NCBI RefSeq assembly: GCF_018336915.1
Contig: NZ_CP064923.1
Coordinates: 570,001-602,000, forward strand
DNA: 32,000 nucleotides
Source: Acaryochloris marina S15
Lineage (GTDB): Bacteria > Cyanobacteriota > Cyanobacteriia > Thermosynechococcales > Thermosynechococcaceae
Direction: 5' to 3'
Positions 4,305 to 31,042 of this stretch are shown here, piece after piece. The translations under genes were made by a program, and so were the position numbers. A model generated the notes under the pieces. It was not told the origin of the DNA. It saw nothing but the letters and a program-made list of their open reading frames with translations, and did no database searches. How positions within the stretch are numbered: position 1 is the stretch's first letter; every line of letters begins with the position of its first letter.

Positions 4305-4823
4305 GATGACAATTTTCTCTACCCATTGTGCAGTATATCGTCCAGAGATTGCTTGATAGATAACGGTAGAGGGCAGCTAAGAGCACCAGCGTCTCAAAAT
4401 TTTTGAGTACAGGATGACCAATATGGAGGTATTGAAGTGCATGGTCACCTGTGAAGGCCAATCTATAGAAATAGAGGAGCCGCCTAAAAATTTTAAGACT
4501 TTAAGGATGTCAGTCGAGTAAAGTACTGATCTCTGATTCCATCAGCTCGGGGATAAGTACTTATATTCAGTAGTATCACTGAATTCAATGTTCTAGACTC
4601 AAAATGTTTTTTGTTCTTTTAAATAAAAATAAGTGAAACTACCTAGGACACTAGTCAAAAAGAATAAATAAAGGAAAAGACAATATGAGATTAAAAATTA
4701 GAAGAAATAGGTAATTGTCGCGAGTGGGACCTTTTTCTCTAAGGGCATGCTGTAGATATACACATCATATACATCCACACAATCACCTACATTCTCAGAG
4801 ATGTGCTCCACGAGGTTATACCC

Positions 4824-6365
4824 ATGAAACGCCTGATTCCACTGACTAAGCTGACACTGAGTTGTACATTACTCTTTGCTGCATTAGGTTCACCTGCTTT
4901 AGCTCAAATAGAAGTTGAAGAAGGGGCCGTTTATACCGGCGATATTGATATTTCAGGTGATGAAAATGGGGTTAATTTAGAAACCCTAGATAATGATTGT
5001 GGAACAGTCATTCGTCAACGGGATGATAACGATGATGGTACCCCTGGTCCAGATAATAACCTCGTTGTAAATGCGGGTGAGGATGCCTTTGAAGGCAACG
5101 GCACAGGTTGTGCAAATTCCTCATCCTCTTCCGTAGGTAATTCCTCCAACAACCAAAATAGCCAAACCATCAATGCCAATCCTACGAATATTTCTGAGTC
5201 GGGAGCGATTACATCTGGAGATGCAACCTCCTCAGTAGATGGGGGATATTCCCAGTCCTCTTCTGACGTCAACGGTGGCAACTCTACGTCTCAAGCAGAA
5301 GGAGCAACGGGGGGTAGCTCAACCTCCGGAGCGAATTTAGGTGATGTCAGTAGAGGTGAGACTTCTTTAGGAGATGCGATTCGCGGTGAGACTTCTCTGG
5401 GAGATGCGACTCGCGGTGAGACTTCTCTGGGAGATGCAACCCGTGGCGATACTTCCTTAGGTAATGTCAATCGAGGAAACACAGCGCTTGGCGATAATCA
5501 ATTTAACACCAGCACTTCCGGTGGTACTGCGAACCAAAGCCAGTCGGCCAATACCACAGGTGGAAACGTTACCGCAGGATCCGCCACTCAGAATCAATCC
5601 GCCAATACCACGGGGGGAGATGTGACAGGAGGGGCAGCCAATACCAACGGTGGATCATCCGACACAACCGGTGGCACGGTCACCACCAATGGTGGCTCAG
5701 CCAACCAAAGCGCTAGCACCACAGGAGGGACCGCCAACCAATCCCAAATCGCCAATACGGGCAGTGGTCCGGCAAGTACCAACAGTGGTGACCTTAGCCT
5801 TGCCCCCATCACTGTCCAGACTGGTGATAATAGTGTCAATAATCGCCAAATTACCAACAATACGGCCAATTTCTCCAATACGAGCGCCTTCGCCAATAAT
5901 TCAGTCTTCGGCAAAAATGCCTTCAATGGCAGCGTATCCGGTGGAATGTATGCTCGCCTGAATGCCTCTTCCAAATCTTCGAGCGCTTATAACAATAGCT
6001 TTAGCCATAATCAAGCGGAAGTCGAAGTTGGGATTTTCAAAGCGTTTCAAACAGTGGCATCCAAAAATTCTGCTCGTCGAAAGCGGGTCAAATTTGGCCA
6101 AGACATGATTGTCTACTGTGTCGATTTCCTCAAGCACTATCCCAATCTGATGGCGATTGACGTAGCCACCATTCACAACAGCCATCTCAAAAAGACGGTA
6201 CAGGCTTGTCAAGAGCTAGGTCCCCTTGTTGCGCAACAGCAGCCTCGACAAGTGATCATTAACGTCCCGCCTCAAGCCCAGCCATCACCGGAAGTCTTGA
6301 ACCTCCCAGGTTCAAGAGATCTTCCTTCAGAGCCTCGTCGGATTACCCGTAGCAGTGGCGGTTAA
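4824..6365 (+). CDS. Secreted low-complexity repeat protein, paralogue 1 (long form with C-terminal domain)
   Basis: The ORF track gives 4803-6365, but I prefer the ATG at 4824. Its upstream context ACGAGGTTAT...ATGAAAC is duplicated in front of paralogue 2. Signal peptide: MKRLIPLTKLTLSCTLLFAALGSPALA/QIE. It has an acidic N-domain with a Cys pair, about 300 aa of G/S/T/N/D/Q repeats and a roughly 130-aa C-terminal domain. It aligns end to end with the 8013-9554 product. Confidence 0.85.
   Translation: MKRLIPLTKLTLSCTLLFAALGSPALAQIEVEEGAVYTGDIDISGDENGVNLETLDNDCGTVIRQRDDNDDGTPGPDNNLVVNAGEDAFEGNGTGCANSSSSSVGNSSNNQNSQTINANPTNISESGAITSGDATSSVDGGYSQSSSDVNGGNSTSQAEGATGGSSTSGANLGDVSRGETSLGDAIRGETSLGDATRGETSLGDATRGDTSLGNVNRGNTALGDNQFNTSTSGGTANQSQSANTTGGNVTAGSATQNQSANTTGGDVTGGAANTNGGSSDTTGGTVTTNGGSANQSASTTGGTANQSQIANTGSGPASTNSGDLSLAPITVQTGDNSVNNRQITNNTANFSNTSAFANNSVFGKNAFNGSVSGGMYARLNASSKSSSAYNNSFSHNQAEVEVGIFKAFQTVASKNSARRKRVKFGQDMIVYCVDFLKHYPNLMAIDVATIHNSHLKKTVQACQELGPLVAQQQPRQVIINVPPQAQPSPEVLNLPGSRDLPSEPRRITRSSGG
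5340..5489 (+). repeat. Five in-frame 30-bp tandem units encoding decapeptides G[DN]xxRG[EDN]T[SA]L
   Basis: It translates as GDVSRGETSL GDAIRGETSL GDATRGETSL GDATRGDTSL GNVNRGNTAL. Units 2 and 3 differ at only a few bases. Confidence 0.9.
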
Positions 6366-6433: not shown

Positions 6434-7519
6434 ATGAAACTCTATTCCAGATTAAATGTTCTCACTGCCAATACCCTAGGCCTAGCCTTTTTGATGACTG
6501 TGTCAGGAGCACCTGCCATAGCCCAAGTTGAAGTCGAAGAAGGTGCAATTTTTACGGGAAATATTACCGGTGGTCCCACAGAAATTCAAACCTTGGATAA
6601 CGATTGTGGCACAACCATTAGCCAACGGTCAGATGACGGCACACCCAATGATGTTGACAACAACATCGAAGTCACAGCCCAAGAAGATGCATTTTCTGGG
6701 ATTGGCACAGGTTGTGCAGAATCCACTTCTAGCGTGACTGGAGAATCTGTAACCAATACTAATACGGAGAATATCACTGCCAGCCCTGACAATACTTCCA
6801 CCACGGAAGCCATCACTTCTGGTGATGCGACTTCTGCTGTAGATGGAGGTTTTTCAGAGTCTGATTCTGATGTCAGTGGTGGGAATTCTTTTAGCGAAGC
6901 CGAAGCTGCAACGGGTGGTAGCTCAACGTCCAATGCAACTCAAGGAGATGTGACCGAGGGCAATACAACTTTTGGTGATGTCTCCCGTGGCAACACCGTT
7001 TTTGGCGATGTTTCTCGTGGCAACACTATTTTTGGCGAAGTGACCCAAGGGAATACAACCTTCGGTGATGTCACTACAGGTGATACCGATCTAGGAGGCA
7101 ACACCTTTGACGCAGAAGTCATCAGTGGCTCGGCTGACCAAGAACAGATGCTTGATACTACCGGTGGAGATGTCGTTGCTGGCAACACAGATCAGACCCA
7201 AGCTTTGGATACAATAGGCGGAGATATCACCGGTGGGACTGCCGATATGATGGGTGGGACCGCCAATCTGGTGGGTGGTGATGTGACCACAACAGGTGGT
7301 TCTTCCAATCAAACTGGCTCTGTTACAGGTGGAACAGCTGACCAAAGTCAGTTTGCTGAAACCATCAGTGGACCAGCTACTACCAACAGTGGTGACCTGA
7401 CCATTGCCCCTATTACAGTGAACACGACTGATTCTTCAGTCGATAACAGTAGTGTTACGAACAGCTACGTCAACAGTGCTGTCGTCAATAGCTCCAACGT
7501 GAACACTGTTAATCCTTGA
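6434..7519 (+). CDS. Secreted low-complexity repeat protein, paralogue 2 (short, more acidic form lacking the C-terminal domain)
   Basis: 361-aa ORF starting 68 nt after paralogue 1, with GAGG 10 nt upstream of the ATG. It shares the signal peptide, the N-domain (EVEEGAIFTG, LDNDCGT, GTGCAES), the decapeptide repeats and the GG-x repeats. It stops about 25 aa after the conserved SGDLTIAPITV motif, and a strong terminator follows. Confidence 0.85.
   Translation: MKLYSRLNVLTANTLGLAFLMTVSGAPAIAQVEVEEGAIFTGNITGGPTEIQTLDNDCGTTISQRSDDGTPNDVDNNIEVTAQEDAFSGIGTGCAESTSSVTGESVTNTNTENITASPDNTSTTEAITSGDATSAVDGGFSESDSDVSGGNSFSEAEAATGGSSTSNATQGDVTEGNTTFGDVSRGNTVFGDVSRGNTIFGEVTQGNTTFGDVTTGDTDLGGNTFDAEVISGSADQEQMLDTTGGDVVAGNTDQTQALDTIGGDITGGTADMMGGTANLVGGDVTTTGGSSNQTGSVTGGTADQSQFAETISGPATTNSGDLTIAPITVNTTDSSVDNSSVTNSYVNSAVVNSSNVNTVNP
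6944..7093 (+). repeat. Five in-frame 30-bp tandem units (decapeptide repeats, paralogue 2 version)
   Basis: It translates as GDVTEGNTTF GDVSRGNTVF GDVSRGNTIF GEVTQGNTTF GDVTTGDTDL. Confidence 0.9.
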
Positions 7520-8012: not shown

Positions 8013-9554
8013 ATGAAGACGCATTTTGGATTAAAAACGATTGCCGGTAGCACTCTTGGCTTAATGCTGGTTTTCTCGGCTTTTGGGCAGTCAGGATTGG
8101 CGCAAACGACTGAAGTAGAAGAAGGCGCGATTTACACTGGAGATATCACCTTAGATGGCAACGAAAATGCCGTCGATATCGAAACGTTGGATAACGATTG
8201 CGGCACCAACTTTGACCAGCGCGATGATGACGGTACGGATGGGACTTCTAATAATATTGATATTCAAGCCGGTGAAGATGCTTTAGAAGGCATTGGAACT
8301 GGCTGTGCTAACGCCAGTTCATCATCAGTCGGTAACTCTTCAGATAACACCAACACCACCACCATCAATGCCAGCCCAGACAATACGTCCACCTCTGAAG
8401 CGATAACCTCTGGAGCGGCTACATCGAGTGTTGAAGGAGGCTACTCACAATCCCAATCTAACGTCAGTGGCGGCGACTCCAACTCTTTTGCTGAAGGTGC
8501 AACGGGTGGCAGCTCCACCTCCCAGGCTGATTTAGGAAATGTATCTCGCGGAGATACAACGCTAGGCAATACGACTCGTGGCGATACAACGCTAGGCAAT
8601 ACGACTCGTGGCGATACAACGCTAGGCAATACGACTCGTGGCAATACTGCTTTGGGTGATGTCAGCAGAGGGGATACTACGTTAGGGAATAACGATTTTA
8701 ATGCTGCGACGACAGGTGGTTCAGCTAATCAAGACCAATCTGCTAACACCAATGGCGGGAATGTTACCGGTGGCTCTGCCAATCAAGACCAATCTGCTAA
8801 TACCAATGGTGGAAATGTCACCGGTGGCTCTGCCAACTCTACGGGTGGATCGGCTAATACGCTAGGCGGCAATGTCAATACGACGGGTGGATCCGCCGAT
8901 CAGAATGCGGTCACCAATGGTGGATCAGCGACTCAAGACCAAAATGCTGCCACGAATAGCGGTGAGGCCTTGACCAATAGCGGTAATGTCAGTGTGGCCC
9001 CCATCACCATTGATACGAGAGACAGTTCCGTGGATAACTCCGCAGTCACTAACAACCACGTCAACATAAGCAATCAAAGTTCTTTTAACCGCAATTCAGT
9101 GTTCAACGACAATTCATTTAGTGGCAGAGTTTCCGGTGGATTCTATGCCCGAGCCAATGCATCTACTCAGAACAGTTCAGCTTATGGAAATGACTTTAGT
9201 AGCACAGCTGCAGAAGTCGAAGTTGGAGTATTTAAGGTCTTCCAAACAGCTGCCCGTCGCGATGCCGCAGATCGTGCTGAGATGAAGTTTGCCCAGAATA
9301 TGATTGTCTACTGCACTGATTTTCTGAAGCACTACCCCAACTTGATGACCATTGATGTGGCCACGATTACAGACGCTAGTGTCCGGGAGACTGTCCAATC
9401 TTGTCAGGATTTAGGCCCCATGGTGACCCGACCGCAGCAGGTCATTATCAATGTTCCACCCCAGGCACAGCCTTTACCCCAGTCCCAAGTTTTACCGGGA
9501 TCTCGTCAAGTCCCTGATTTACCTCGCAGCATTACCCGCAGTAGTGGCGGTTAA
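8013..9554 (+). CDS. Secreted low-complexity repeat protein, paralogue 3 (long form with C-terminal domain)
   Basis: 513-aa ORF. Signal peptide ends ...GQSGLA/QTTEVEEGAIYTG. Its architecture matches paralogue 1, including the C-terminal domain (AEVEVGVFKVFQ...MIVYCTDFLKHYPNLMTIDVATI...VQSCQDLGP...QVIINVPPQAQP...ITRSSGG*). A roughly 400-bp AT-rich region precedes it. Confidence 0.85.
   Translation: MKTHFGLKTIAGSTLGLMLVFSAFGQSGLAQTTEVEEGAIYTGDITLDGNENAVDIETLDNDCGTNFDQRDDDGTDGTSNNIDIQAGEDALEGIGTGCANASSSSVGNSSDNTNTTTINASPDNTSTSEAITSGAATSSVEGGYSQSQSNVSGGDSNSFAEGATGGSSTSQADLGNVSRGDTTLGNTTRGDTTLGNTTRGDTTLGNTTRGNTALGDVSRGDTTLGNNDFNAATTGGSANQDQSANTNGGNVTGGSANQDQSANTNGGNVTGGSANSTGGSANTLGGNVNTTGGSADQNAVTNGGSATQDQNAATNSGEALTNSGNVSVAPITIDTRDSSVDNSAVTNNHVNISNQSSFNRNSVFNDNSFSGRVSGGFYARANASTQNSSAYGNDFSSTAAEVEVGVFKVFQTAARRDAADRAEMKFAQNMIVYCTDFLKHYPNLMTIDVATITDASVRETVQSCQDLGPMVTRPQQVIINVPPQAQPLPQSQVLPGSRQVPDLPRSITRSSGG
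8553..8642 (+). repeat. Perfect 3 x 30-bp tandem repeat inside paralogue 3
   Basis: GATACAACGCTAGGCAATACGACTCGTGGC occurs three times without a mismatch (8553-8582, 8583-8612, 8613-8642). It is in frame and encodes DTTLGNTTRG three times. It lies within the wider decapeptide array at 8535-8684. Confidence 0.95.
8715..8822 (+). repeat. 2 x 54-bp near-identical tandem repeat encoding GGSANQDQSANTNGGNVT
   Basis: Units 8715-8768 and 8769-8822 encode the same 18 aa and differ only at synonymous positions. Degenerate GG-x copies continue to about 8960. The equivalent region in paralogue 1 is 5520-5768. Confidence 0.9.
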
Positions 9555-9602: not shown

Positions 9603-10406
9603 ATGAAAAACTTCCACCTGACCACCCTAATTAGCTTCGTCGTACTCTCCACCATTCCAGCATCTGCGGTGGCCCTACCAATTGATTTTGATGATTCCAC
9701 CAAAATTAAACTCATTGAGATGGGGATTGATGCTCTAACCTCAGACAAATCAACGTCGGAGACATCAGAAACCGAAGAAACCCATTCAGCTGCGACGACT
9801 GAACCGTCAACAACGAATACTGCTGCCCCGAAACTAGACTCAAAAGCACCAGTAACTGGAACATCTAATAGCGAGCAGAATGAACTGCTCACTCCGAAAG
9901 CAACGAAAACAACATCGGCTGTTCCAAGTCCGAATACTCAGCAGGTTCACTGTGCCCAAGTTCAACAACATTGCTTAGAAGTTTCACATGCTACGCGTAG
10001 TGTTGGTGTATATGAAGGGGGGATGTTGCAGCAAACCCTGCCCTTGAATAATGGACAAGCTGTTTACAACGTTCCTACAGGAGGCACCAGCGTCACAACC
10101 TACCCTCAACCTGTGCCTTATCAACCTGTTCAACCTCTTACCTATCCTCAAACTCAACCGACGGTTTATCCAGTGGGCAGTTACCCAGTAGCCCCCAACG
10201 CGAATCCTTGGGGCTATGGTTACCCGACGGCTTATCCTCAGTCTGTTTATGCACCTACTGTGCCAGTTTATGGAACCCCAGCTCCTGTATTCCAGGCAGT
10301 GCCTAGAGTAAGCTCCCAACAGGATGTGATGGTGATTAATGTTGAGCCGAAAGCTGAAGCTCAAACCATCATCTTGGACAATAACTATCCTTTTCAGGGC
10401 CGTTAG
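9603..10406 (+). CDS. Secreted Ser/Thr-rich then Tyr/Pro/Gln-rich protein with a YkuD-N-terminal-like Cys-pair module
   Basis: 267-aa ORF starting 48 nt after paralogue 3. Signal peptide: MKNFHLTTLISFVVLSTIPASAVA. It has an acidic S/T/E region, then VHCAQVQQHCLEVSHATRSVGVYEGG, which resembles the N-terminus of the next gene. A YPQPVPYQPVQPLTYPQTQPTVYP-type tract follows, and the C-terminus is DVMVINVEPKAEAQ.... Confidence 0.75.
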   Translation: MKNFHLTTLISFVVLSTIPASAVALPIDFDDSTKIKLIEMGIDALTSDKSTSETSETEETHSAATTEPSTTNTAAPKLDSKAPVTGTSNSEQNELLTPKATKTTSAVPSPNTQQVHCAQVQQHCLEVSHATRSVGVYEGGMLQQTLPLNNGQAVYNVPTGGTSVTTYPQPVPYQPVQPLTYPQTQPTVYPVGSYPVAPNANPWGYGYPTAYPQSVYAPTVPVYGTPAPVFQAVPRVSSQQDVMVINVEPKAEAQTIILDNNYPFQGR

Positions 10407-13244: not shown

Positions 13245-15854
13245 CTAGGTCCCTGAGGACTTGGATTTAGCCTCTAGATCGGCTAGCCGACTTTTCAGCT
13301 CCTGATTGGCTTGTTGGAGTTGCTGAACTTCCTCTTGTAATGTGCTTAGGGCTTGATTTGATTTCACTCGGGCCTGCACTCTTTTAACTGATTCTTCGGC
13401 CATTCGTCGCACCCGACCATCAGGGGTTTGGTTGGCTAAGGTTTTCAGGAGTGAGATCGCTTTGGGGGTTTCCATCTGTCCCAGGGATGCGGATACCGAC
13501 ACTTGGGTTAAAAAGAAACTCTCACCCACGAGCACCGATAGCCGATCCAAAATGCGCTGCAGCTGTTCAGGGGGTTGTCCGGTGGAAATACTTCCTAAGG
13601 CTCGAATGGCAGCGAGACGGAGCGGTTGTGGGGTTCCTGCTTCGGTATAGGTCAAAATTAAATCGAGGGCTGCAGTGGAGGTTTTCATTTGGCTAAGGGC
13701 ACCAATGGCTCCAGAGCGCACCACCTCATTCCAGCCTGCCCGGTCTTTGAGAACCGATTTAAAGAGCTTGATGACCTTGGTCTCTTTGGGTTTAGTGGTT
13801 AGGGTGGAGGATGCGATCGCACCCACGGCTCGTAATGCACTAGCTTCCACGTAATAACTGGGGTCACCCTTTTCAGCCAGAGGCTTGATGGCTTTGTAGC
13901 TCTCGTCCGTTTTAAAGGTCGCCATGGCTTCTACCACTGCCCGTCGGACTCTGGCATCCTTGTCCTTAAGACCTGGCTTGAGGGCGGTCAGTACCTGATC
14001 GAGCTTAATCTGAGCTAACTGCTTTGCCACTTCGACCCGCATGCCCCAGAACCCATCAGTAGTCAGGGCTTCCCCTAAACTTTTAATGACTTCTAATCCG
14101 CCTTTTTTCGCCAAGGCCTGGGCCGCATAAATTCGAGAGAGGGGATCGGGGTCCTGTTTAAGCTGAGCCTTCAGCTCAGGCACCGGGTATTCGAGGGTGA
14201 CCTGCTTGAGATAGTGATTGCCTTGATCGAAGCTGATCAGAAGTGGTTTTTCAGGGAGGCCAAAGTAAAAGCTCTGCTCCTGCTCATGGACACGAACCGT
14301 AAAGGCTTGAAACTCTATGGGTTGCTTGCCTCGGTCAAATCCAAAGGCAATGGGCAGATTCAAATCAAATAGTTCTTTTGCACTATTTTTGTCTTTTGGA
14401 TCCACCTGGGTTTGGGTCACTGTTACCTTGGCCATCTTATGATCGGCATCCCAGCTATAGCCCAATTTATATTCGGGATGGCCGCCCCGATAGACATATT
14501 GATCAAACAAGAAGAGCAGATTGCGACCGGTGGCTTTTTCAATTGCCCGCAGTAAGTCAATGGTCTCTACGGTTTTGTGGGCATTGTCCTGAACAAAGGT
14601 ATGGATGGCTCGCCAAAACAGCTCATCGCCTAACTCTGCCCGAATCATATGATAGATACAGGCCCCTTTCTCGTAGAGATGGCGGTCATATAGCTCAATG
14701 GCTTCTCGGTAGACATGGGTGACCACGGGGCGACGATAGCGATTGCTATCCTCGTTGAAATAGTTACGGGCTTCGTTCAGCCGATAATAGGCAGCATCCT
14801 CAGCCCCATATTCATGGTTGGTCCACATCACTTCGGAATAGGAGGCCATGCCTTCCTTGATCCAGGCATGGGACCAATGCTTGATCACCACTAAATCCCC
14901 AAACCACTGGTGGGCTAATTCATGGGCCACCAGACTTTCTGCAGAACGATTATCAAGGGCAGCCCGCTCATCCAATAAGCAGCGATCTGTCAGCAGGGTA
15001 GTGGAGGTATTTTCCATACCGCCGAAGATAAAGTCATCAACGCAGACCTGGGCGTATTTGGGATAAGCGTAGGGATAGCCGTAGTATTCGCTAAAAAACT
15101 CAATCATGCGGGGCGTTTTGCCCATGGTGAGCTGGGCCTGATCTTCCCGCCCTTTCTCCACATAATAGGTCACGGGTTTGCCTTGCCAATCATCAATGAT
15201 TTCTGCAAACTCGCCGACCGCTAAGGTCATTAAATAGGTGGGATGTACCTGCCGCTGGAGCCAATGGTAGATTTTCTGTTTGCCATCCACTTCGGTTTCA
15301 ATCAGCTCTCCATTGGAGATGGCCATAAAGGCTTTGGGCACCCGCACCCGAATTTCTGAAGTGGCAAGCTGACCGGGGTAGTCAAAGCAGGGAAACCAAA
15401 ACCGAGAGTCTTCATCTTCCCCTTGGGTCCAAACCTGGGTGGGTTTGTCAGGATAATGCTCATCGGGCTGGACAAAGTAAAGACCGCGTTGGGGCTGGTG
15501 TACGGTGTATGCGATCGCAACCGTAAATACTTTCCCCACTGTGGTTGGCTGTTTTAAATGAATCTGTAACTGTTCACCGTCATAGTCAAAGAGCTGTTTG
15601 GTGCGGCCAACCTTGACGCCTTCGATCTGCAAATCGACCGCATCCAACACCAAGGTCTCAACCCCACTGCGCACCGGGTTTAATCGAATCTGACAGGTGC
15701 CGCTAAAGGATTGGGCAGGAATGTCTAGGGCTAGATCCAGAAAAATATGCTCGACTTGGCCGGGGCGATCGGGATTGTAGTGAGGCCGTGCCCCTGCCGT
15801 TTCAAAGGACTTGTGCTTCTTAGTTTCAGAATCAAAGAAAAGATGGGACATCAC
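13245..15854 (-). CDS. pepN: M1 family aminopeptidase (aminopeptidase N-like) with C-terminal HEAT-like repeats and a coiled-coil tail
   Basis: 869-aa ORF. It has the GGMEN exopeptidase motif (FGGMENTS), the zinc site HELAHQWFGD and the downstream WIKEGMASY. The C-terminal third is helical-repeat-like and ends LQEEVQQLQQANQELKSRLADLEAK. Confidence 0.9.
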   Translation of the reverse strand: MMSHLFFDSETKKHKSFETAGARPHYNPDRPGQVEHIFLDLALDIPAQSFSGTCQIRLNPVRSGVETLVLDAVDLQIEGVKVGRTKQLFDYDGEQLQIHLKQPTTVGKVFTVAIAYTVHQPQRGLYFVQPDEHYPDKPTQVWTQGEDEDSRFWFPCFDYPGQLATSEIRVRVPKAFMAISNGELIETEVDGKQKIYHWLQRQVHPTYLMTLAVGEFAEIIDDWQGKPVTYYVEKGREDQAQLTMGKTPRMIEFFSEYYGYPYAYPKYAQVCVDDFIFGGMENTSTTLLTDRCLLDERAALDNRSAESLVAHELAHQWFGDLVVIKHWSHAWIKEGMASYSEVMWTNHEYGAEDAAYYRLNEARNYFNEDSNRYRRPVVTHVYREAIELYDRHLYEKGACIYHMIRAELGDELFWRAIHTFVQDNAHKTVETIDLLRAIEKATGRNLLFLFDQYVYRGGHPEYKLGYSWDADHKMAKVTVTQTQVDPKDKNSAKELFDLNLPIAFGFDRGKQPIEFQAFTVRVHEQEQSFYFGLPEKPLLISFDQGNHYLKQVTLEYPVPELKAQLKQDPDPLSRIYAAQALAKKGGLEVIKSLGEALTTDGFWGMRVEVAKQLAQIKLDQVLTALKPGLKDKDARVRRAVVEAMATFKTDESYKAIKPLAEKGDPSYYVEASALRAVGAIASSTLTTKPKETKVIKLFKSVLKDRAGWNEVVRSGAIGALSQMKTSTAALDLILTYTEAGTPQPLRLAAIRALGSISTGQPPEQLQRILDRLSVLVGESFFLTQVSVSASLGQMETPKAISLLKTLANQTPDGRVRRMAEESVKRVQARVKSNQALSTLQEEVQQLQQANQELKSRLADLEAKSKSSGT

Positions 15855-17527: not shown

Positions 17528-18959
17528 CAGCAATTGTAAATTCAAAATTTTGGCAAGCTAGGTTGTAGTCGTTGAGGATGTATTCATACACTTGCAGAGC
17601 CCCAGACGATGAATGAAGGTGTTCTAAATTTCCCTCTCTTACTGCACTGGCTACATCAGCTCATTGAGCACCTCGATGATCCACGTCAACCCAGTAATGG
17701 CACCAAATTTAGTCTCAAAGATATTGTATTAGGCGCATTTGCTGTCTTCTTTATGCAATGTCCTTCGTTTCTGGAGTACCAACGCCATGTTCATAGTCGT
17801 CATGGTCGTGACAACGCCCAAGCCCTCTTTGAGTTAACAGAACTCCCCACGAGCAACCAAATCAAGAATGTTTTGGACTTGATCGCATTTCGTCTTCTGT
17901 TTCCCATTTTTTATCAAATTTATAGCGTTCTCCTACGACGAGGTTATCTAGAGCAATATAAGGTTCTAGGTGGACACCTGTTGGTAGGGCTAGACGGCAG
18001 CGAGTATTTTTCCTCAAACCGGATTTGTTGCGATCAGTGTTCTACCAAAACCCATCGGGATGGGAGTGTCACCTATACGCACACCGCCGTGTTGCCCGTC
18101 CTCGTTTGTCCGGAAATTGAACATGTCATTTCTCTGGCCCCAGAGTTCATTCGTCCTCAAGATGGTGCGGAGAAACAGGATAGTGAAACCGCTGCGGCCA
18201 AACGGTGGATCAAGGGGCATGCTCAAGGGTTTGACGGAGCCAAGATTACGGTTCTTGGCGATGACCTCTATAGCCGTCAACCGATGGTGGAGACTTGTTT
18301 AGAGGATGAGTTGAACTTCATTTTTGTCTGTTTGCCCTCCTCCCATCCAGAGCTATATGAATGGGTAGAGTATTTAGAAGGTATTGGAGATGTTGAGCAT
18401 CTAGAGACTCGGGGCTGGAACGGTCGCTATCATGAAATTTGTCAGTATCGCTATTACAATCGCATCCCCCTGCGTGAGGAGCTACCAGCAGTGATGGTCA
18501 ACTGGTGCGAAGTCTCTGTTACTCGTGCTGCTGATGGAAAGACTATGTATCACAACGCGTTCATTACTCACCATTTCATCAATGACCAAAGTGTGGCCGA
18601 GATTGTCAGTGCTGGACGTGCCCGATGGAAAGCGGAGAATGAAGGACACAATGTCCTCAAAACCAAGGGCTATCACTTAGAACATAATTTTGGTCATGGT
18701 CAGAAGAACCTTGCTGCTGTGCTATTGGTACTCAACCTGTTGGCATTCTTATTTCATACCGTCTTGCACTTGGTGGACTCCACTTATCAACGCATGCGAA
18801 AGCAACGGGGAACCCGACAAGGCTTTTTTCACGATATTCAGACTTTGACCAAATACTTGCTCTTTGAGAGTTGGGAGCATTTGCTCCAGTTTATGTTGGA
18901 TGATCCAGAGCCTCGAATAGCAGCCGATACCTCATGAAATATTGAATTTACAATTGCTG
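17528..18959 (+). mobile_element. 1432-bp DDE insertion sequence (IS4-superfamily-like) nested in the IS630 transposase gene
   Basis: Perfect 18-bp terminal inverted repeats, CAGCAATTGTAAATTCAA (17528-17545) and TTGAATTTACAATTGCTG (18942-18959), extend to 22/24. A 9-bp direct target duplication AGTGGCACA is at 17519-17527 and 18960-18968. Confidence 0.9.
17609..18937 (+). CDS. DDE transposase of the nested IS (apparently intact)
   Basis: 442-aa ORF filling the element. Candidate catalytic contexts are LLVGLDGSEYF, VLGDDLY and GRARWKAENEGHNVLK (an RW.xEN-type E motif). I cannot assign the exact IS family without a search. Confidence 0.8.
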   Translation: MNEGVLNFPLLLHWLHQLIEHLDDPRQPSNGTKFSLKDIVLGAFAVFFMQCPSFLEYQRHVHSRHGRDNAQALFELTELPTSNQIKNVLDLIAFRLLFPIFYQIYSVLLRRGYLEQYKVLGGHLLVGLDGSEYFSSNRICCDQCSTKTHRDGSVTYTHTAVLPVLVCPEIEHVISLAPEFIRPQDGAEKQDSETAAAKRWIKGHAQGFDGAKITVLGDDLYSRQPMVETCLEDELNFIFVCLPSSHPELYEWVEYLEGIGDVEHLETRGWNGRYHEICQYRYYNRIPLREELPAVMVNWCEVSVTRAADGKTMYHNAFITHHFINDQSVAEIVSAGRARWKAENEGHNVLKTKGYHLEHNFGHGQKNLAAVLLVLNLLAFLFHTVLHLVDSTYQRMRKQRGTRQGFFHDIQTLTKYLLFESWEHLLQFMLDDPEPRIAADTS

Positions 18960-20313: not shown

Positions 20314-22641
20314 TCACCGGGTTCTTTGGCCAAGGGAGACTAAGACATTCAGCTTCCATAAGGGAACCCCTGCTCTCTGGGCGGCGGCTTCACGACTATA
20401 CCCTCGACGGAGTAGTTTAATCGCGTCTTGAGTTTTATTCCAGGTTGACCCATTGAGCACAATCTTACGGTTTTGGCGGGCCACCACTAACCCACGGGTG
20501 ACCAACTGAGCTTCCTTCAGGGCAGCCTGGGAATATTTTGGCTTAGCACTACTCCTGACCGCTACGGGAGGACGAGGTTGAGAAGGACGACTGACCACAG
20601 GCTTGCTTACAGGTCGACGGGGACGAGTCGCCCTAGGTGGGGTTTGTCGGGCGGGTAGCGGAGGCAGAGGATTTTGCCGTAGCACTGCAGGTTCTGGAGA
20701 GAATGGGGGAGGGTATGCAGCGATAAAAGGCAAGGGTGGTGCCGGTTTGACTTTTGCGGCTTGTTTGGGCTTAACCTGGGCAACGGGCGGTTTGGGTCTG
20801 TTGGTCGGCGCTTTGGCAACCGTGCCCCCAATCGCCACGGTTTGTAGCACTTGTTTGCCATTCAGGTCGGTGGCTTGCAGGGTAATTGCCCCTGGCTGTT
20901 GGGGGTTGAGCTGGTACTTCATCGAGCCTGATGCGGGTATTTTGCCGGGGCTAGGCAAAATTGCAACGCTGGGATTATTGCCACCCTCTACTTTCCAAGT
21001 TAACTTCACATGATCTTGGCCTGGCTTTAAAACAAATTGTGCAGGTGCTTTTTGACCATTGATTAGAAAGCTGGCAATTCTTAGATTTTTAGCCTGTACG
21101 TTCATCGGCCCAATAGTTTTGGACAGGGTGAAAGGTTGCTGCTCTTGTTGGTAAGACGCGGTGATCTTGAAAAAATATTGTCCGGGTTTGCGAGCAGCCG
21201 TTGGTACCTTTTGACAGGTCAACGTAGGCGTAAAGCGACAATATTTGGTCAGGGTATCAGGAAGCTTGCCATTGACTAATTGATACCGTTGTAACAAAGC
21301 CGCCTCGGCATTGTTAGCGTCGACGGTCATAATCTGTAACTCTGTCAGTTGGCTAGGGTTGGCAATTTCCCAGTTCAGCTGAATCGGGCCAGATGGAGCG
21401 GAGGCCACGGGACCTGAAGTCGATGTGTTGGCCCTAGAGGCTGGTGCATAAAAGCGGGTAATAAGCGGTACAGCATTGGGTTTGAAGGCAATTAGACTAG
21501 TGATTTGGGTTGCCATCGGCTCGCTGGCATTGTCACTCGAAAAAGCCTGTACCTTGAACTGGTATTGGCCTGGATTGGTCGTCCCTGTTGTAATGCCAGT
21601 ACATTTTAAAGCGCCAGTTTCGGGCTGATCAGATTGACAGAAATTGGAGTTTTGACTGGGGGTGCTCCGCTGTAATTCTTTCGGAATCCCCTCATCAAAT
21701 CGGAAAGTCTTGGCCACTTCAGATTGGCCTTGGTATTCCCGAAGAATCACTAACTTTGCAAGCTTCTGGCTATTCTTGATGGTCCAGCTGAGCTGAATAT
21801 CTTTTTGTCCGGTTTGGGGGACAACCGTTTGACTGGAGCGGAGGGCTGCGATGGCAGGGTCAGTGGGTTGACGCCAGAGGAACTGCCACAACAGAGCAGA
21901 AGATGTGCCTAAAGCCAAGAGTAACAGCCCGAGAAGTTTGAGGCCGTGGGAGCGAGGATATGGCTGCCATACTACCCCTGCTTGGGCTAGTAATTGCGGT
22001 AGCGGGATGCCATTGGTATCTTGCAAATCCACTTGGAATTGGAATTTGCGGCCCTTCCCGAGCCATGGTCTGAGCCACCACCGTCGAGGCTGAACTATGA
22101 GGTCCACCTTGCCTGTCTGATCAGGACCCAGATCGAGTTGGAGAGGCTCGGCCTTGAAGGTCAGGCCATTCCGAGCAGGCAATCCTTTAGGCTGCACCGT
22201 CAAAACTCTTTCAAATCGAGACGTATTGGTAATCAATAGTTGGTATACACCAACGCCATCCTTAATAAAGGTCAGATCTGGCGTGAGCATGATGTCAATA
22301 TCATCTGCCACTAGAAATTGCAGATACACTTGGTCTTCCCAGAGAATCTCCCCCTCTGAAGAGACTAGTTGCAGCTTAAGCTGATGCTGGCCAATGGCGG
22401 CAACTTCAGTGGGGTGAATTAACACCTCGATTTGATTGTGATGGCCCTGTTCGGCACTCATGGCGGGTGCACCTAGGGTGTAGCAGTCTGAGGATAATTG
22501 ACTTCCCTTAAGCTGATAGTCTCGCCCCTGACTTGCAATATTTTCTACGGTGATGGTGATCAGTAGCTTGGTGCCTAACTTGAGTGCATAGGGCTGATCT
22601 ACTGCCGTAACCGGTGCAATCGTAACCTTAGGGGAAGTCAT
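20314..22641 (-). CDS. Large single-pass membrane protein with repeated beta-sandwich-like modules, a Pro/Lys/Arg-rich linker and a small helical C-terminal domain (unknown function)
   Basis: 775-aa ORF. It has one hydrophobic segment (LKLLGLLLLALGTSSALLWQFLW), three internally similar modules, a PKPPVAQVKPKQAAKVKPAPPLP...PRPPVA tract and the C-terminus LLRRGYSREAAAQRAGVPLWKLNVLVSLGQ. Confidence 0.75.
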   Translation of the reverse strand: MTSPKVTIAPVTAVDQPYALKLGTKLLITITVENIASQGRDYQLKGSQLSSDCYTLGAPAMSAEQGHHNQIEVLIHPTEVAAIGQHQLKLQLVSSEGEILWEDQVYLQFLVADDIDIMLTPDLTFIKDGVGVYQLLITNTSRFERVLTVQPKGLPARNGLTFKAEPLQLDLGPDQTGKVDLIVQPRRWWLRPWLGKGRKFQFQVDLQDTNGIPLPQLLAQAGVVWQPYPRSHGLKLLGLLLLALGTSSALLWQFLWRQPTDPAIAALRSSQTVVPQTGQKDIQLSWTIKNSQKLAKLVILREYQGQSEVAKTFRFDEGIPKELQRSTPSQNSNFCQSDQPETGALKCTGITTGTTNPGQYQFKVQAFSSDNASEPMATQITSLIAFKPNAVPLITRFYAPASRANTSTSGPVASAPSGPIQLNWEIANPSQLTELQIMTVDANNAEAALLQRYQLVNGKLPDTLTKYCRFTPTLTCQKVPTAARKPGQYFFKITASYQQEQQPFTLSKTIGPMNVQAKNLRIASFLINGQKAPAQFVLKPGQDHVKLTWKVEGGNNPSVAILPSPGKIPASGSMKYQLNPQQPGAITLQATDLNGKQVLQTVAIGGTVAKAPTNRPKPPVAQVKPKQAAKVKPAPPLPFIAAYPPPFSPEPAVLRQNPLPPLPARQTPPRATRPRRPVSKPVVSRPSQPRPPVAVRSSAKPKYSQAALKEAQLVTRGLVVARQNRKIVLNGSTWNKTQDAIKLLRRGYSREAAAQRAGVPLWKLNVLVSLGQRTR

Positions 22642-23290: not shown

Positions 23291-24898
23291 TCATATCGAA
23301 TTCCTGCCATCTAATCGAGTCAAAACTTTTTGAAAATAAGACTGAATAGAAGGCTGCAGCCGCTTCCATGCCCACCCCAAGGCGCTTTCAAGCCAGGCAG
23401 TGATGCGATCTAACCCAGCTAGAATTCGTTCTAAAGGGTGTTTTTCATAGCCCACCATCACGGCATCTACTTCAATTTCGATGGAGCCATCTTGGGTATA
23501 GATTGTTGCTGGAGAGGCAGTCGTTTCTAACTGCTGGGATACTTCAGTAGCCAAGATCGGAGACCCAGGGATTGATGCTGTTGTATTTGCTGGCGAAGCT
23601 GTAGGTATTTTTTCGCTATACAGGTCAGCCCAGGATAGCGTTGAGAACGCTTCGTTGGGTGAGGGGGCAGACTGTTGTGGGGCTTGAGCTGCGGGCTGGC
23701 CTTGGGTGGGTTGAGGTCGTCCCAATAAGGCCGCCATTGCTGATCGTAAGGTACTGGGAATCCAGGTTGCAGCATACCGGACTGGATGTTCAGGGGGCTG
23801 TCCGCCTAAAGTCGGGTCTTGACTGAGAATGCTAAGGCTAGGCTGAAGTTGAGACTGCTGCTGTTTCCAATGTTGAACGACATAGTCCGACAGGTCCGTG
23901 GCGGTAGGTCCCATGACTTCCCAAGAGGTGGTCTCCCAAGATGAGATCGCACCGTCTAACATCTCAATGGCATCTTGGGTCAGTTTCGGGGTCAGCTGAT
24001 CCAAGGTCGCTGCCAATCCCTGGGGTAAGGATAACGGTAGCGGGTATGAGGCTTCATCTCCTGGCAAGGCCAAGGCTTCCTGAAATAAATTGGCTTTTGC
24101 CGCCATGGGCCCTGTTTGCATCCAGGCCATAGCTTTGCGGAAGGCTCTAACGGGAGGCAGCATTTGCGATCGCGTTTTTGGCATCGGCAACTGCCGGAAG
24201 TCTGTTTTCGCAAGGTGCTGGAAATCTTTGCTGAGTCGCTCTTGTCGTCGATAATTGGCTAACTCCCACGTCATCAGCTTGTGCAATTCTCGTTGCTGGG
24301 CAGGGGTAAGAACATCGATGGCCTCATTATCAGGCGTCACCAGGGATACATGGGTCGATTGCAAATCACAGGCAATCCCCTGAATTTTGACCGCTGGTTC
24401 TGAGGTAATGCCTAACCAACGAGTGGCTTTGTTGTGGAGAGGATTTCGCTCTGCCCAGCGTTGTATCCACTTCTGATACCGGACTCGAATCGTCGGACGT
24501 CGGTGAGAGAGGCCTTCAATCTGAACAGAAAATTGAGGTTCTTCAGCCCATGCGTCGTCTTCTGCGTCTTCGTCCAGTTCAGATTCGAGGGTATCAATTT
24601 GAATAGCCGCTAGTACATTGCGAATGGGGCCATCTGCATTGCTCGCAAGGCTATCTTGACTCGGATCGGTAACAGCCTTCAGCAGTCGCTGGCCCTGTAC
24701 ATCTCCCTGACGGAGGGCTTGTTGGGTAAAGCGGGAAACTTGAAATAATAAATAGATAGGGTACAACCCCATCTGCATCCCCCAGAGGCTGGTGACTTTA
24801 GCCTGGCGTAAATTCCGTTGCCATTGCTCCGTCAACTCGCGGGACTGTTGGAGGATGAGATTAAATAATCGACTCTGGTAACGGCTTTCCGCTGTCAT
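23291..24898 (-). CDS. Hypothetical protein (535 aa), unknown function
   Basis: A long ORF with ordinary composition. It has an acidic patch (ELDEDAEDDAWAEEPQF) and a Q/P/A-rich low-complexity segment near the C-terminal third. I recognise no family motif. Confidence 0.7.
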   Translation of the reverse strand: MTAESRYQSRLFNLILQQSRELTEQWQRNLRQAKVTSLWGMQMGLYPIYLLFQVSRFTQQALRQGDVQGQRLLKAVTDPSQDSLASNADGPIRNVLAAIQIDTLESELDEDAEDDAWAEEPQFSVQIEGLSHRRPTIRVRYQKWIQRWAERNPLHNKATRWLGITSEPAVKIQGIACDLQSTHVSLVTPDNEAIDVLTPAQQRELHKLMTWELANYRRQERLSKDFQHLAKTDFRQLPMPKTRSQMLPPVRAFRKAMAWMQTGPMAAKANLFQEALALPGDEASYPLPLSLPQGLAATLDQLTPKLTQDAIEMLDGAISSWETTSWEVMGPTATDLSDYVVQHWKQQQSQLQPSLSILSQDPTLGGQPPEHPVRYAATWIPSTLRSAMAALLGRPQPTQGQPAAQAPQQSAPSPNEAFSTLSWADLYSEKIPTASPANTTASIPGSPILATEVSQQLETTASPATIYTQDGSIEIEVDAVMVGYEKHPLERILAGLDRITAWLESALGWAWKRLQPSIQSYFQKVLTRLDGRNSI

Positions 24899-26884: not shown

Positions 26885-27129
26885 CCCTAGGGACGACTGA
26901 ACGGTTATCTCTGATACCCTTTGGCCTTAAACGAAGGCTAATTTATATTCTCTTGTAGCTGAAAGTTCTCTCCCATGGAGAGGGTGGGCAACCTATGGGC
27001 GAAGGATTGATGATGGGCTCTCAGGGTTGAACTAGTCAGTAATGGCAAACCATGGATGGTTGTGTTGCTGGTCTTGGCGTGACTGAACACTCAGAGCTCA
27101 GGGAACATACAGTTTGAAAGGATTTGCCC

Positions 27130-28044
27130 ATGCTCTTAACTCAGCGCAAACGGAAAAAGAAAGTTTGGCTTGGTGAACTACTGGTTCAGAAAGGATTGAT
27201 CAGTCCAGCTGAATTAGCTCACGCCCTAACTGAACAGCGACAGACTCATCTAAAGCTTGGTGAAATCCTGATTCAGCAGGGATTAATTAGCCATCAGCAG
27301 CTGCAACAAGTGCTCAATGAACAGCGGTGGCGTAATGTCGTTACGGCTGTATTACTCTCCGTGAGTGCATTGGTCGCTGATTTGCCCCGTCTTGTCTATA
27401 GCCAACCGATTCCTTACCACCGATCCAATTCGACGGTGATCACTCCTGATTCTGTGAGTGCAGGAAATTCTCCCAAGGCAATGGGGGGAGCACGGTTACC
27501 CAAGCAGCCGAGTCATAATCCCTATCAGGCACCCTTGCAAGCCTATGCGACGGTAACATCTCCCCTACGGGGCTTTTGCCATCCATTGAAGGGACAAGGC
27601 CATCTAAGCCAGGGAATTAGAGGCCAAACCCATCGAGGACGAATGGAATATGCCTATGATTTAGCGGTGAATATTGGCACTCCTGTCTATGCAATGCGGT
27701 CCGGTAAAGTGATCGCGATTCGTGATTACTATCCCGATAATGGCGGTAGTCAGTCTAAATCTTCTCGTTTTAACTATGTTTGGCTCGAGCATGATAATGG
27801 CTACCGTTCTGCCTATATCCATTTGCAAAAGAAATTTAATCGGAACGTTAATCTCAAAATCGGACAGTGGGTAGACGCTCAACAATTGATTGGCTTCAGT
27901 GGTAATTCGGGCTGGAGTTCTGGTCCTCACTTACATGTCGAAGTTCAAAAACCTGAACGGGCTAAACCGTTTGCTAAGAAGTTTTCCAAGACCGTCCCTT
28001 TCGAGATTGCTGGGTATTGTCCTACTGCCCGATTTGCTCCCTAA
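27130..28044 (+). CDS. M23 family metallopeptidase with N-terminal MshEN/T2SSE_N-like domain and one TM segment
   Basis: The ORF track starts at TTG 27124; the ATG is at 27130. The N-terminus contains two 24-aa LGxx[LIV][LIV]xxG[LIV][LIV]xxxxLxxxLxxQ motifs. The TM segment is VVTAVLLSVSALVADL. The M23 core has GTPVYAMRSGKVIAI, GFSGNSGWSSGPHLHVEV (HxH) and THRGRMEYAYDLA. Confidence 0.8.
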   Translation: MLLTQRKRKKKVWLGELLVQKGLISPAELAHALTEQRQTHLKLGEILIQQGLISHQQLQQVLNEQRWRNVVTAVLLSVSALVADLPRLVYSQPIPYHRSNSTVITPDSVSAGNSPKAMGGARLPKQPSHNPYQAPLQAYATVTSPLRGFCHPLKGQGHLSQGIRGQTHRGRMEYAYDLAVNIGTPVYAMRSGKVIAIRDYYPDNGGSQSKSSRFNYVWLEHDNGYRSAYIHLQKKFNRNVNLKIGQWVDAQQLIGFSGNSGWSSGPHLHVEVQKPERAKPFAKKFSKTVPFEIAGYCPTARFAP

Positions 28045-29599: not shown

Positions 29600-31042
29600 A
29601 TGTCACTGCTTTTAACTGATTTTGACCAGTGGTATGACCAGTTTGTAACTGCTTCTCCTAAACAACAGCATGAATTGTTGGTAGATGCGCTTTCAGAACC
29701 TATTCCATCTGACTATGCCGAAGAGATTGATCTAATTGCTAGTGTTCTCGATGTGTTCGATATGCTGATCCGCCAAAACTTAACGGATCAAGCAATTCAG
29801 TTGACCACTCTTTTGCAAAAACATCATTCTGAGATTTACCAGCGTGAGTTTCAATATTTTGATGGTCAACTGCTTCAATATTCTCTATTCCACCAAGCTT
29901 GGCAACAAGTCCAAGAGTATCTCTCGCGTTTTCGAGATCATCCGGTCCAGAGTATTGATCAACTCATTTCAGTTCTCGATAATTTAAGGCTGCATGGTGC
30001 TACAGATTTAGCTGTAAATTTGTGCAGAGCCACTTACAAAATGGTTGCGACTTCCTCCCAATTAATAAGTGGGGCTGAATGGGACCTGGGCGTTGTTGTC
30101 ATTATGGATTTATTCGAACAGGCCCACCATCAACTGCAGCAAGGAGAAACTGTTGACTGGAGTAAGGTGGGGGCTGATGCAGCTAAATTTGGCTTTGAGA
30201 ATACCCCTAAAAAATGCCAAGAAGTTGAAAAACACTTGACCGAAGATTGGCAGGTTAGCCCAGACGTAAAAAAAGCGTTTAAACAAGATCGAGGTCTTAT
30301 TCTGCGCCATTTGCTATTAGAGTTTTGTCGATACATGTATTGCCAACAGCAAATGAGTTTTGTCTGCAGTGAGTTGATTTGGAGTACGGTCCTTGACTGC
30401 TGCAATCATCAAGATCGTCCCAAAAAACAACTCACCCAACCTGATAGTTATTTCTCCATTTCACAACAGGCGCTTGATAAATATGTAGGCCAATTGGTGG
30501 GTGGTCTATTATCAATGCGACAAGCTCAGGGATTTGCAGTTTTATGGGGCATACCTTATGTGTATAAGTTTTTGCTAGACAAACAAATCATCCGAGAGGA
30601 GACTTATCATCAGGCATTTAAGGCAACTACTGCATTGAAGGGATTCTTAATCAAAGGATTTCAGCAATCCTTGTGGCAATACAATTTTGTACATGTCTGG
30701 CAACGACCTGCTCAAGTTTCGGCAGAAGAATTTGCTTCAGAAACTGAACAGTTTGTAAAGAGTGCTGAGCAAGTTGAACCGTTAAGTGAAGAGCCTCAAG
30801 AGCGCTCTGATTTTAGTTTTCTCCATAAAACGCCTAAGCAGGAAGTCTTTGGGAAAGCTGAGTCATCCTCTTCTGGGGGCCAAAACATTTCTCAAGCAAC
30901 AAAATCTACTCAGCCGCCACAACCTATCTGGGAACCTCCTAAACCTCGCAAATCTCCTTTACAAGAAGCGGCTAAATTATCATCTAAAGGGAAGAAGGGG
31001 AAGTCTAAAAAGTCTAATAAGGGATTCAAGTCTTCCTCATAG
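29600..31042 (+). CDS. Hypothetical protein (480 aa) with a Lys/Ser-rich basic tail
   Basis: A long ORF, helical-looking and Gln-rich. The C-terminus is PKPRKSPLQEAAKLSSKGKKGKSKKSNKGFKSSS. I recognise no family. Confidence 0.65.
   Translation: MSLLLTDFDQWYDQFVTASPKQQHELLVDALSEPIPSDYAEEIDLIASVLDVFDMLIRQNLTDQAIQLTTLLQKHHSEIYQREFQYFDGQLLQYSLFHQAWQQVQEYLSRFRDHPVQSIDQLISVLDNLRLHGATDLAVNLCRATYKMVATSSQLISGAEWDLGVVVIMDLFEQAHHQLQQGETVDWSKVGADAAKFGFENTPKKCQEVEKHLTEDWQVSPDVKKAFKQDRGLILRHLLLEFCRYMYCQQQMSFVCSELIWSTVLDCCNHQDRPKKQLTQPDSYFSISQQALDKYVGQLVGGLLSMRQAQGFAVLWGIPYVYKFLLDKQIIREETYHQAFKATTALKGFLIKGFQQSLWQYNFVHVWQRPAQVSAEEFASETEQFVKSAEQVEPLSEEPQERSDFSFLHKTPKQEVFGKAESSSSGGQNISQATKSTQPPQPIWEPPKPRKSPLQEAAKLSSKGKKGKSKKSNKGFKSSS

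Follow-up and report, generated by a model that had tools for sequence, protein, structure and literature searches.

The fusion of an MshEN_N module, a binding module for cyclic diguanylate (c-di-GMP), to an M23 peptidase has been on record since 2016, when Wang et al. listed 'MshEN_N - Peptidase_M23' in their Supplementary Table 4 for Acaryochloris marina NlpD (AM1_1153, ABW26190), naming Acaryochloris and Crinalium, and aligned the N terminus of AM1_1153 in the same supplement (PMC5013675). Here we analyze a gene of this architecture from Acaryochloris marina S15, carried on a 32,000-nucleotide stretch of contig NZ_CP064923.1 (positions 570,001 to 602,000, forward strand; hereafter the window). 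Its product unites two copies of the MshEN motif with a hydrophobic anchor, a linker and an M23 domain. The most likely function of this protein is to gate or position a periplasmic peptidoglycan endopeptidase in dependence on c-di-GMP, a reading that we hold with fair confidence and in which ligand binding, topology, catalysis and coupling are each predicted.

AM1_1153 corresponds to the protein that we recovered as P0107 at locus L022, which contains the N-terminal sequence printed in the 2016 supplement and, over 94 % of the query, shares 52 % identity with the window protein. The two come from the same genus and have the same full-length architecture, but AM1_1153 is a paralogue rather than an orthologue, with Arg at position 1 of motif I where the window clade has Trp. 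A preliminary description of this DNA knew of no characterised MshEN-M23 fusion; we likewise found no main-text treatment in the literature, although the architecture itself had been catalogued by Wang et al. The fusion is real and conserved, and its architecture is not new. To the existing record we add the Trp-first clade, the ExxxD/H-x8-D peculiarity of the peptidase, and a paralogue expansion with occasional GGDEF or exosortase neighbours. The architecture has stood in a supplementary table since 2016; the value of the present analysis lies in pointing to a conserved candidate and not in discovery.

The tandem c-di-GMP motif

The open reading frame (ORF) at 27124..28044 (+) encodes 306 aa counted from a TTG codon, from which residues are numbered throughout. 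The ATG at 27130, two codons past the TTG at 27124, is the likelier start because the database protein P0001 (99 % identical) has 304 aa. An AAGGA-like Shine-Dalgarno sequence lies 5' of this ATG, and a terminator-like hairpin (26918-26941) lies 3' of the gene upstream of the ORF. The gene and the elements of its N-terminal module are as follows.

27124..28044, + strand: whole gene, encoding MshEN_N, hydrophobic anchor, linker and M23 peptidase (from the ORF list)
27145..27165, + strand: basic N-terminal patch RKRKKKV ahead of motif I, residues 8-14, seen in the sequence, with K13 conserved in 105/121 family members
27166..27237, + strand: MshEN motif I, WLGELLVQKGLISPAELAHALTEQ, residues 15-38, with Trp at the guanine 1-stacking position
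27238..27252, + strand: five-residue spacer RQTHL, residues 39-43
27253..27324, + strand: MshEN motif II, KLGEILIQQGLISHQQLQQVLNEQ, residues 44-67, whose modelled last helix enters the hydrophobic segment directly

Residues 15-67 (nucleotides 27166-27324) read WLGELLVQKGLISPAELAHALTEQ-RQTHL-KLGEILIQQGLISHQQLQQVLNEQ, exactly as the preliminary description had quoted them. Its division of this region into two 24-residue MshEN copies with a five-residue spacer was borne out by regular-expression matches at residues 15-38 and 44-67. Departures from the consensus are, as it had stated, confined to position 1, which is Trp in motif I and Lys in motif II, and all remaining consensus positions fit. 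When the strict pattern was searched without its leading Arg (xLGxx[LVI][LVI]xxG[LVI][LVI]xxxxLxxxLxxQ), just these two sites were found in the six-frame translation of the window, and none of 300 composition-preserving shuffles yielded a match. A chance origin of the tandem motif is excluded.

Profile searches gave a consistent assignment. NCBIfam NF053729 ('c-di-GMP_motif, MshE-related') aligned with residues 16-67 over profile positions 2-53 of 53 and reached 69.6 bits (E 1.4e-19), the curated cut-off being 38. Pfam PF05157, which had been proposed as a check, gave no match even at E <= 10; this model describes the whole MshEN domain with its N and C subdomains, and it stays silent because only the 53-residue MshEN_N subdomain is present. 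Proteins of this type fall within the class 'MshEN_N only, no T2SSE_N1 domain' of Wang et al. (PMC5013675). Separately, sub-threshold Pfam matches to DUF2949 (22.5 bits) and DUF4388 (21.1 bits) were recorded over the MshEN_N region (window 27124-27345, residues 19-74), and these two families may harbour unrecognised MshEN_N-like c-di-GMP motifs.

AlphaFold2 modelled residues 20-70 with a predicted local distance difference test (pLDDT) score of 92-97 and placed helices at residues 16-22, 28-41, 45-51 and 57-85. Foldseek superimposed the modelled module on c-di-GMP-bound Vibrio cholerae MshE (5HTL) at 0.6 Å over 53 columns with 43 % identity, and on c-di-GMP-bound Thermus thermophilus PilF GSPII-B (8PDK) at 0.9 Å with 48 % identity, both with a probability of 1.00; PilF GSPII-B was also the best sequence match in the PDB. 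The 53-residue tandem motif and the predicted fold are common to the N-domain of MshE, PilF GSPII-B and the window protein. In contrast, MshE and PilF possess an extra MshEN_C subdomain and are cytoplasmic ATPases of type II secretion systems and type IV pili, whereas the window protein has MshEN_N only, linked by a membrane anchor to a predicted periplasmic enzyme.

Conservation was assessed from column counts in a MAFFT alignment of 121 family sequences. The ligand-contacting positions are near-invariant: Q38, G46, L49, L64 and Q67 are found in 121/121 sequences, L35 is shared by 120, and G17 and L31 are each kept by 119. Columns at motif positions have a mean entropy of 0.58, those at x positions one of 1.78. 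The Lys/Arg patch of MshE that is equivalent to the basic patch ahead of motif I adjoins the ligand (PMC5013675).

The residues at position 1 had raised the concern that Trp and Lys in place of Arg would weaken binding, a concern that published measurements speak against. In MshE, Arg9 stacks on guanine 1, and in earlier mutagenesis, changes to the charged residues Arg9, Asp12 and Gln32 shifted affinity by no more than about fivefold (PMC5013675). A CheA MshEN_N carrying R1M, I11A, R30K and L40A kept binding (2.6 µM), and isolated MshEN_N (residues 1-62), without the C subdomain, bound c-di-GMP at 0.35 µM. PilF GSPII-B naturally has Lys and Leu at position 1 of its motifs and binds c-di-GMP at 6 nM; its K167R substitution lowered affinity 25-fold and K167L tightened binding to 2 nM, and its authors widened the consensus to (R/K/L), judging a large hydrophobic first residue to be beneficial (PMC11731258). 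Judged against the natural Lys/Leu pair and K167L variant of PilF and the R1M/R30K changes of CheA, a weakening of binding by Trp and Lys appears unlikely in the window protein.

Within the family, motif-I position 1 is Arg in 106/121 members and motif II opens with Lys in 105/121. The strict consensus has R at this position and the relaxed set of PMC5013675 is [RKPN]. The Lys of motif II lies within the published sets; the Trp of motif I lies in none of them, yet is a large hydrophobic/aromatic residue. It is also invariant in the window protein's own clade, nine sequences down to 65 % identity, in which 5/22 motif positions vary as opposed to 16/31 x positions. We consider it likely, and with good confidence, that the N-terminal module binds c-di-GMP.

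Membrane anchor and M23 domain

Downstream of motif II the protein is predicted to be organised as follows.

27331..27399, + strand: conserved R-N and hydrophobic segment RNVVTAVLLSVSALVADLPRLVY, residues 70-92, a putative uncleaved signal anchor/transmembrane helix of marginal hydrophobicity
27400..27558, + strand: variable, low-complexity putative periplasmic linker, residues 93-145, poorly conserved, of variable length and with pLDDT < 50
27559..28023, + strand: M23/LytM domain with the subfamily-specific N-terminal extension GFCHPL, residues 146-300
27577..27579, + strand: Cys152, proposed disulfide partner of Cys299 (28018-28020), both invariant in the family
27631..27660, + strand: H170-x8-D179, putative metal-ligand motif HRGRMEYAYD, with E175 at the canonical His position
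27820..27822, + strand: H233 in YIHLQ, third catalytic His of M23, invariant and aligned to lysostaphin YMHL
27928..27936, + strand: HxH motif H269-L-H271, invariant and aligned to lysostaphin HLH

In the model, the last helix of motif II (57-85) runs unbroken into the only hydrophobic stretch of the protein (residues ~70-92), where R70 (114/121), N71 (120/121) and P88 (99/121) are conserved. The preliminary description had assigned a single transmembrane helix here. A lone hydrophobic stretch does follow motif II, but its hydrophobicity is marginal, with a Kyte-Doolittle 19-mer maximum of 1.76 at residues 72-91 and a simple Hessa-scale sum of about +4.3.

An N-in/C-out layout, as implied in the preliminary description, is nevertheless predicted with high confidence. 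It is supported by the clustering of Lys and Arg on the presumed cytoplasmic side of the segment (RKRKKK at residues 8-13, R68 and R70), by the classical N-terminal signal peptides of M23-only homologues of the same subfamily (for example at Tolypothrix locus L047), by the robust transmembrane segment at the equivalent place in an Acaryochloris paralogue clade (L032), and by the cytoplasmic nature of c-di-GMP as a ligand. The two cysteines point in the same direction: among scorable homologues, C152 and C299 are both present in 36, both absent in 7 and never found singly. A disulfide between them is probable, and their covariation would fit an oxidising periplasm and hence the same orientation. 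We also considered a twin-arginine (Tat) signal at 'EQRWRN' and dropped it, as the first of the pair can be W, R, C or Q in family members.

The M23 assignment made earlier from the letters of the sequence holds. Pfam PF01551 matched residues 174-278 with 71.1 bits (gathering threshold 28.7; E 9e-20), PDB sequence matches included lysostaphin (2.6e-13), ShyA and Csd1, and the HxH motif is present as H269-L-H271. A full-length AlphaFold run with 21 sequences gave a poor M23 part (overall pLDDT 53); rerun alone with 119 sequences, the domain reached a pLDDT of 85 and a predicted template modelling score of 0.85. Foldseek matched the latter model to ShyA, DipM, Csd1, StM23 and lysostaphin at E values of about 1e-7 to 3e-9, ShyA and Csd1 being the closest folds.

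Alignment with lysostaphin sets MHYGVD opposite MEYAYD (E175, D179): the canonical HxxxD reads ExxxD in the window protein. The preliminary description, which had considered HxH alone and missed this change, had named missing metal ligands as the mark of a degenerate LytM domain, and on this point the alignment is divided. The canonical His is replaced by Glu175, while D179, H233, H269 and H271 are kept and a further His, H170, stands five residues upstream of E175. All five (H170, D179, H233, H269 and H271) are invariant in the fusion family. The H-x8-D spacing is constant across the whole cyanobacterial M23 subfamily (GFCHPL...GNSGWS[ST]GPHLHVE; L001-L047), including its M23-only and >1000-aa homologues, whereas the canonical His position, four before the Asp, drifts among E, Q, A and R in the subfamily and is Ala in two members of the fusion family. 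Because H-x8-D is invariant while the canonical position drifts, the Zn ligand has probably been relocated to H170 rather than lost.

Such a displacement has precedents. A review of M23 enzymes writes the motif in general form as H(x)nD; φ29 gp13 follows it with H(x)7D and LasA with H(x)12D, and both are active. Helicobacter pylori Csd1 has H164-x4-H169-x3-D173, a spacing identical to that of the window protein, and its His164 can replace His169 as Zn ligand. Since H-x8-D falls within the known variation of M23 enzymes, the domain is probably active, and we rate its catalytic competence as reasonably likely.

Predicted function and alternative readings

In the mechanism that we propose, the window protein would be a bitopic inner-membrane protein whose first ~67 residues form a stand-alone cytoplasmic MshEN_N of four short helices. 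This module would bind one molecule of c-di-GMP, contacted by two Leu triads, the Gly-Glu backbone amides and the two terminal Gln residues, while stacking on the two guanines would fall to Trp15 and Lys44. Its last helix would continue unbroken into the short hydrophobic anchor, leaving a flexible linker and an M23 zinc endopeptidase in the periplasm. The peptidase would use a displaced ligand geometry, H170-x8-D179 plus H271, with H233 and H269 as catalytic residues. Given the continuity of the last helix with the anchor, occupancy by c-di-GMP may alter, at the inner leaflet, self-association or the binding of a partner in the cytoplasm or membrane; this coupling step between c-di-GMP occupancy and the peptidase is speculative. 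Peptidoglycan cleavage would then be switched or positioned by the c-di-GMP state of the cell (sessile/aggregating versus motile programme), a form of 'inside-out' control.

Several observations weigh against this proposal. A single helix provides no obvious allosteric path, and the hydrophobic run is short (about 14 apolar residues, followed by D-L-P-R), such that hydrophobicity alone would not call a transmembrane segment. Glu stands at the position of the canonical first Zn ligand, as it does in the metal-free Csd2, and Trp at position 1 falls outside both published relaxed sets, [RKPN] and (R/K/L). A synteny search over 38 loci found no neighbour common to the whole family. The window contains no GGDEF, EAL or HD-GYP gene, and the neighbours of the locus (UPF0047, DUF1499, Tmemb_14, DUF1825 and a class IV aminotransferase) are uninformative. 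Finally, literature searches found no experiment on, or main-text discussion of, an MshEN-M23 fusion, the 2016 supplement being the sole record.

Three other readings were considered. If the M23 domain were a degenerate, non-catalytic LytM factor that activates amidases or serves as a scaffold, in the manner of EnvC, NlpD, DipM or Csd2, the target of c-di-GMP control would be a regulator and not a hydrolase. The Glu175 found in place of the HxxxD His is the same substitution as Glu165 of H. pylori Csd2, which binds no metal; the inactive LytM domains of DipM and EnvC are among the good structural matches from Foldseek, and annotations of the Joint Genome Institute (JGI) read 'MepM/ murein hydrolase activator NlpD'. 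Csd2, however, also lacks the first His of HxH, whereas the window protein keeps H269, H271, H233 and D179, all invariant. The subfamily-wide constancy of the His at H-x8-D beside a drifting canonical position argues for a ligand that has moved, and both the active H(x)7D and H(x)12D enzymes and the Zn-ligating capacity of Csd1 His164 at the same spacing are in line with this. We regard a non-catalytic M23 domain as unlikely. It is also conceivable that the module of the Trp clade has ceased to bind c-di-GMP and persists only as a helical bundle for dimerisation or partner binding, or that it binds another nucleotide. Besides the Trp that neither published set includes, a motif Gly is altered in some members of the clade (G24E in P0006 and P0007, G53D in P0005), and in a sister paralogue clade (L031-L036) the module is visibly gone but for the remnant 'WIGERLVQQGM'. 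Yet the window protein fits the other 21/22 motif positions, within the Trp clade the motif is under tighter constraint than the x positions, and the backbone-amide contacts that confer guanine specificity (G17-E18 and G46-E47) are retained. Moreover, position 1 works by guanine stacking, Leu at this position raises affinity, and an aromatic side chain is a plausible stacker (PMC5013675, discussion). Loss of c-di-GMP binding thus seems quite improbable to us.

The hydrophobic segment allows a further reading, in which export would cleave off the N-terminal 90 residues as an extended signal or pro-sequence and release a mature soluble periplasmic peptidase that takes no part in transmembrane signalling. 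The stretch is indeed short and rich in Ser, Thr and Ala, with Pro residues following, which resembles the h/c region of a signal peptide, and pro-peptides are frequent in M23 enzymes. However, no conserved small-x-small (A-x-A-type) site for signal peptidase follows the segment in the 121-sequence alignment, and the R70-N71 junction and the continuity of the helix are conserved. Nor would a pro-sequence be expected to retain every c-di-GMP-contacting residue of a fold that binds a cytoplasmic ligand. We consider this reading highly improbable and retain that of a membrane-anchored, c-di-GMP-responsive endopeptidase.

As a near-perfect motif placed on an envelope enzyme, the 70-residue domain offers a clean and easily purified test case for a c-di-GMP receptor. 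Were the proposal correct, this receptor would couple a sessile/motile or aggregation signal to cell-wall remodelling, and the family would serve to test whether a protein that spans the membrane once can pass on c-di-GMP occupancy to the other side.

Family, gene neighbourhoods and comparable systems

A protein database search at E <= 1e-3 returned 327 relatives; among the 120 that were listed, nearly all span at least 90 % of the query. Among the matches listed, every relative with a named organism is cyanobacterial (Acaryochloris, Thermosynechococcaceae, Stenomitos, Altericista). Genomes in GTDB extended the full architecture to Petrachloros, Kovacikia, Leptolyngbyaceae, 'Lyngbya confervoides' and Cyanosarcina. 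Clustering at 50 % gave 49 clusters at E <= 1e-30, which are mostly M23-only, with a handful of representatives spanning both domains.

P0016 (397 aa, Acaryochloris thomasi, annotated 'Lysostaphin') has two tandem MshEN_N modules ahead of the membrane segment, and P0025 has the same length as P0016 (397 aa). P0206 (127 aa) matches query residues 9-119 alone, covering MshEN_N, anchor and linker with no M23 domain, and represents either a gene call that was cut short or a membrane-anchored MshEN_N standing alone.

The window is syntenic with the chromosome of A. marina MBIC11017 at ~87 % nucleotide identity, and therefore comes from another Acaryochloris lineage. MBIC11017 has five paralogues: L001, L010, L022 (AM1_1153), L007 on plasmid pREB2, and L032. 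L001, at 3.85 Mb, is the Trp-type orthologue of the window gene (~90 % amino-acid identity), and L032 retains only the motif I remnant IWIGERLVQQGM. In the clade to which L032 belongs (L031-L036), the MshEN_N module is lost apart from the remnant quoted above, and the transmembrane segment is strong. In a neighbour-joining tree without bootstrap, the Trp clade and the degenerate clade form separate groups, and a two-motif Cyanosarcina protein branches below the clade that contains both groups together with the other fusion proteins. This basal position of a two-motif protein suggests that the MshEN_N-M23 fusion is ancestral and that the module was lost secondarily.

Some paralogue loci adjoin genes of c-di-GMP turnover. 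Members of the degenerate clade L031-L036 always lie 400-530 bp downstream of a gene for a REC-GGDEF diguanylate cyclase (for example L032:6437-7549, with the clade gene starting near L032:8001). At L004 a REC-GGDEF-EAL gene follows at +267 bp, and at L023 a GGDEF-EAL gene lies 5.7 kb off. The proximity of GGDEF genes to these loci is suggestive of a link between the family and c-di-GMP. Elsewhere, a gene for an exosortase (EpsH-family, cyanoexosortase-like) follows the MshEN-M23 gene by 17-101 bp on the same strand (L005:8955-10550, L006:8965-9858 and L010:9022-10548), and this adjacency in several genera suggests an operon link to PEP-CTERM/exopolysaccharide (EPS) sorting. The pREB2 copy (L007) adjoins dacB, and a second M23 gene is found about 3 kb away; together these genes make up a small cluster for peptidoglycan remodelling. 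The second-largest 'cluster' in the synteny search is an antisense ORF inside the MshEN-M23 gene itself.

A bolder version of the proposal would make the family a direct, one-protein link from c-di-GMP to peptidoglycan cleavage: with the 53-residue module rigidly joined to a single membrane helix, ligand binding would flip a dimerisation or partner switch and thereby turn the periplasmic endopeptidase on or off. Each of the five A. marina paralogues would answer to its own local diguanylate cyclase, exosortase or EPS system, and the Trp-first variant would serve as a very-high-affinity sensor. We offer this extension tentatively and regard it as doubtful.

Elsewhere in the window, eight ORFs of 267-775 aa (4803-6365, 6434-7519, 8013-9554, 9603-10406, 17609-18937, 20314-22641, 23291-24898 and 29600-31042) had no Pfam match at the thresholds used; the last of these ends in a Lys/Ser-rich tail. 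The gene at 13245-15854 (-) encodes an M1 aminopeptidase fused to multiple HEAT/PBS-lyase HEAT-like repeats.

The control logic proposed for the window protein has a counterpart in LapD-LapG, an inside-out signalling system in which cytoplasmic c-di-GMP binding controls the activity of a periplasmic protease. LapD relies on three domains (degenerate EAL, HAMP and dimeric periplasmic) to sequester a separate protease. The two systems are not homologous: Pfam and NCBIfam searches found no degenerate GGDEF-EAL, HAMP or LapD periplasmic domain in the window protein, and the likeness to LapD is functional only.

The predicted layout of a cytoplasmic tail, a transmembrane segment and a periplasmic M23 domain is shared with LmdC of Hyphomonas/Rhodospirillum and RgsM of Sinorhizobium, which set a precedent for bitopic M23 enzymes under guidance from the cytoplasm. 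In LmdC, a bitopic M23 DD-endopeptidase, the cytoplasmic tail brings the enzyme to bactofilin. RgsM, likewise a bitopic M23 protein, homodimerises and partners with the c-di-GMP phosphodiesterase RgsP. Unlike the window protein, both have tails that are short peptides or a β-hairpin, a canonical HxxxD, and coiled coils in their periplasmic parts.

Escherichia coli NfrB, a fusion of a GT2 glycosyltransferase to MshEN, likewise places an MshEN-type c-di-GMP receptor on an envelope-acting membrane protein, and its model matches residues 10-90 of the window protein (E 5e-9). NfrB is under the control of local c-di-GMP signalling (PMC8669469). In contrast to the window protein, NfrB is polytopic and its output domain faces the cytoplasm, and it therefore needs no signal through a single membrane helix.

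For the M23 domain, the best structural and sequence relatives are the M23B DD-endopeptidases ShyA/MepM and H. pylori Csd1. The spacing seen in the window protein recurs in Csd1 as H-x4-[H]-x3-D, with an upstream His able to ligate Zn. What sets the window family apart from all of these is Glu at the canonical His position, the GFCHPL extension and the conserved pair of cysteines.

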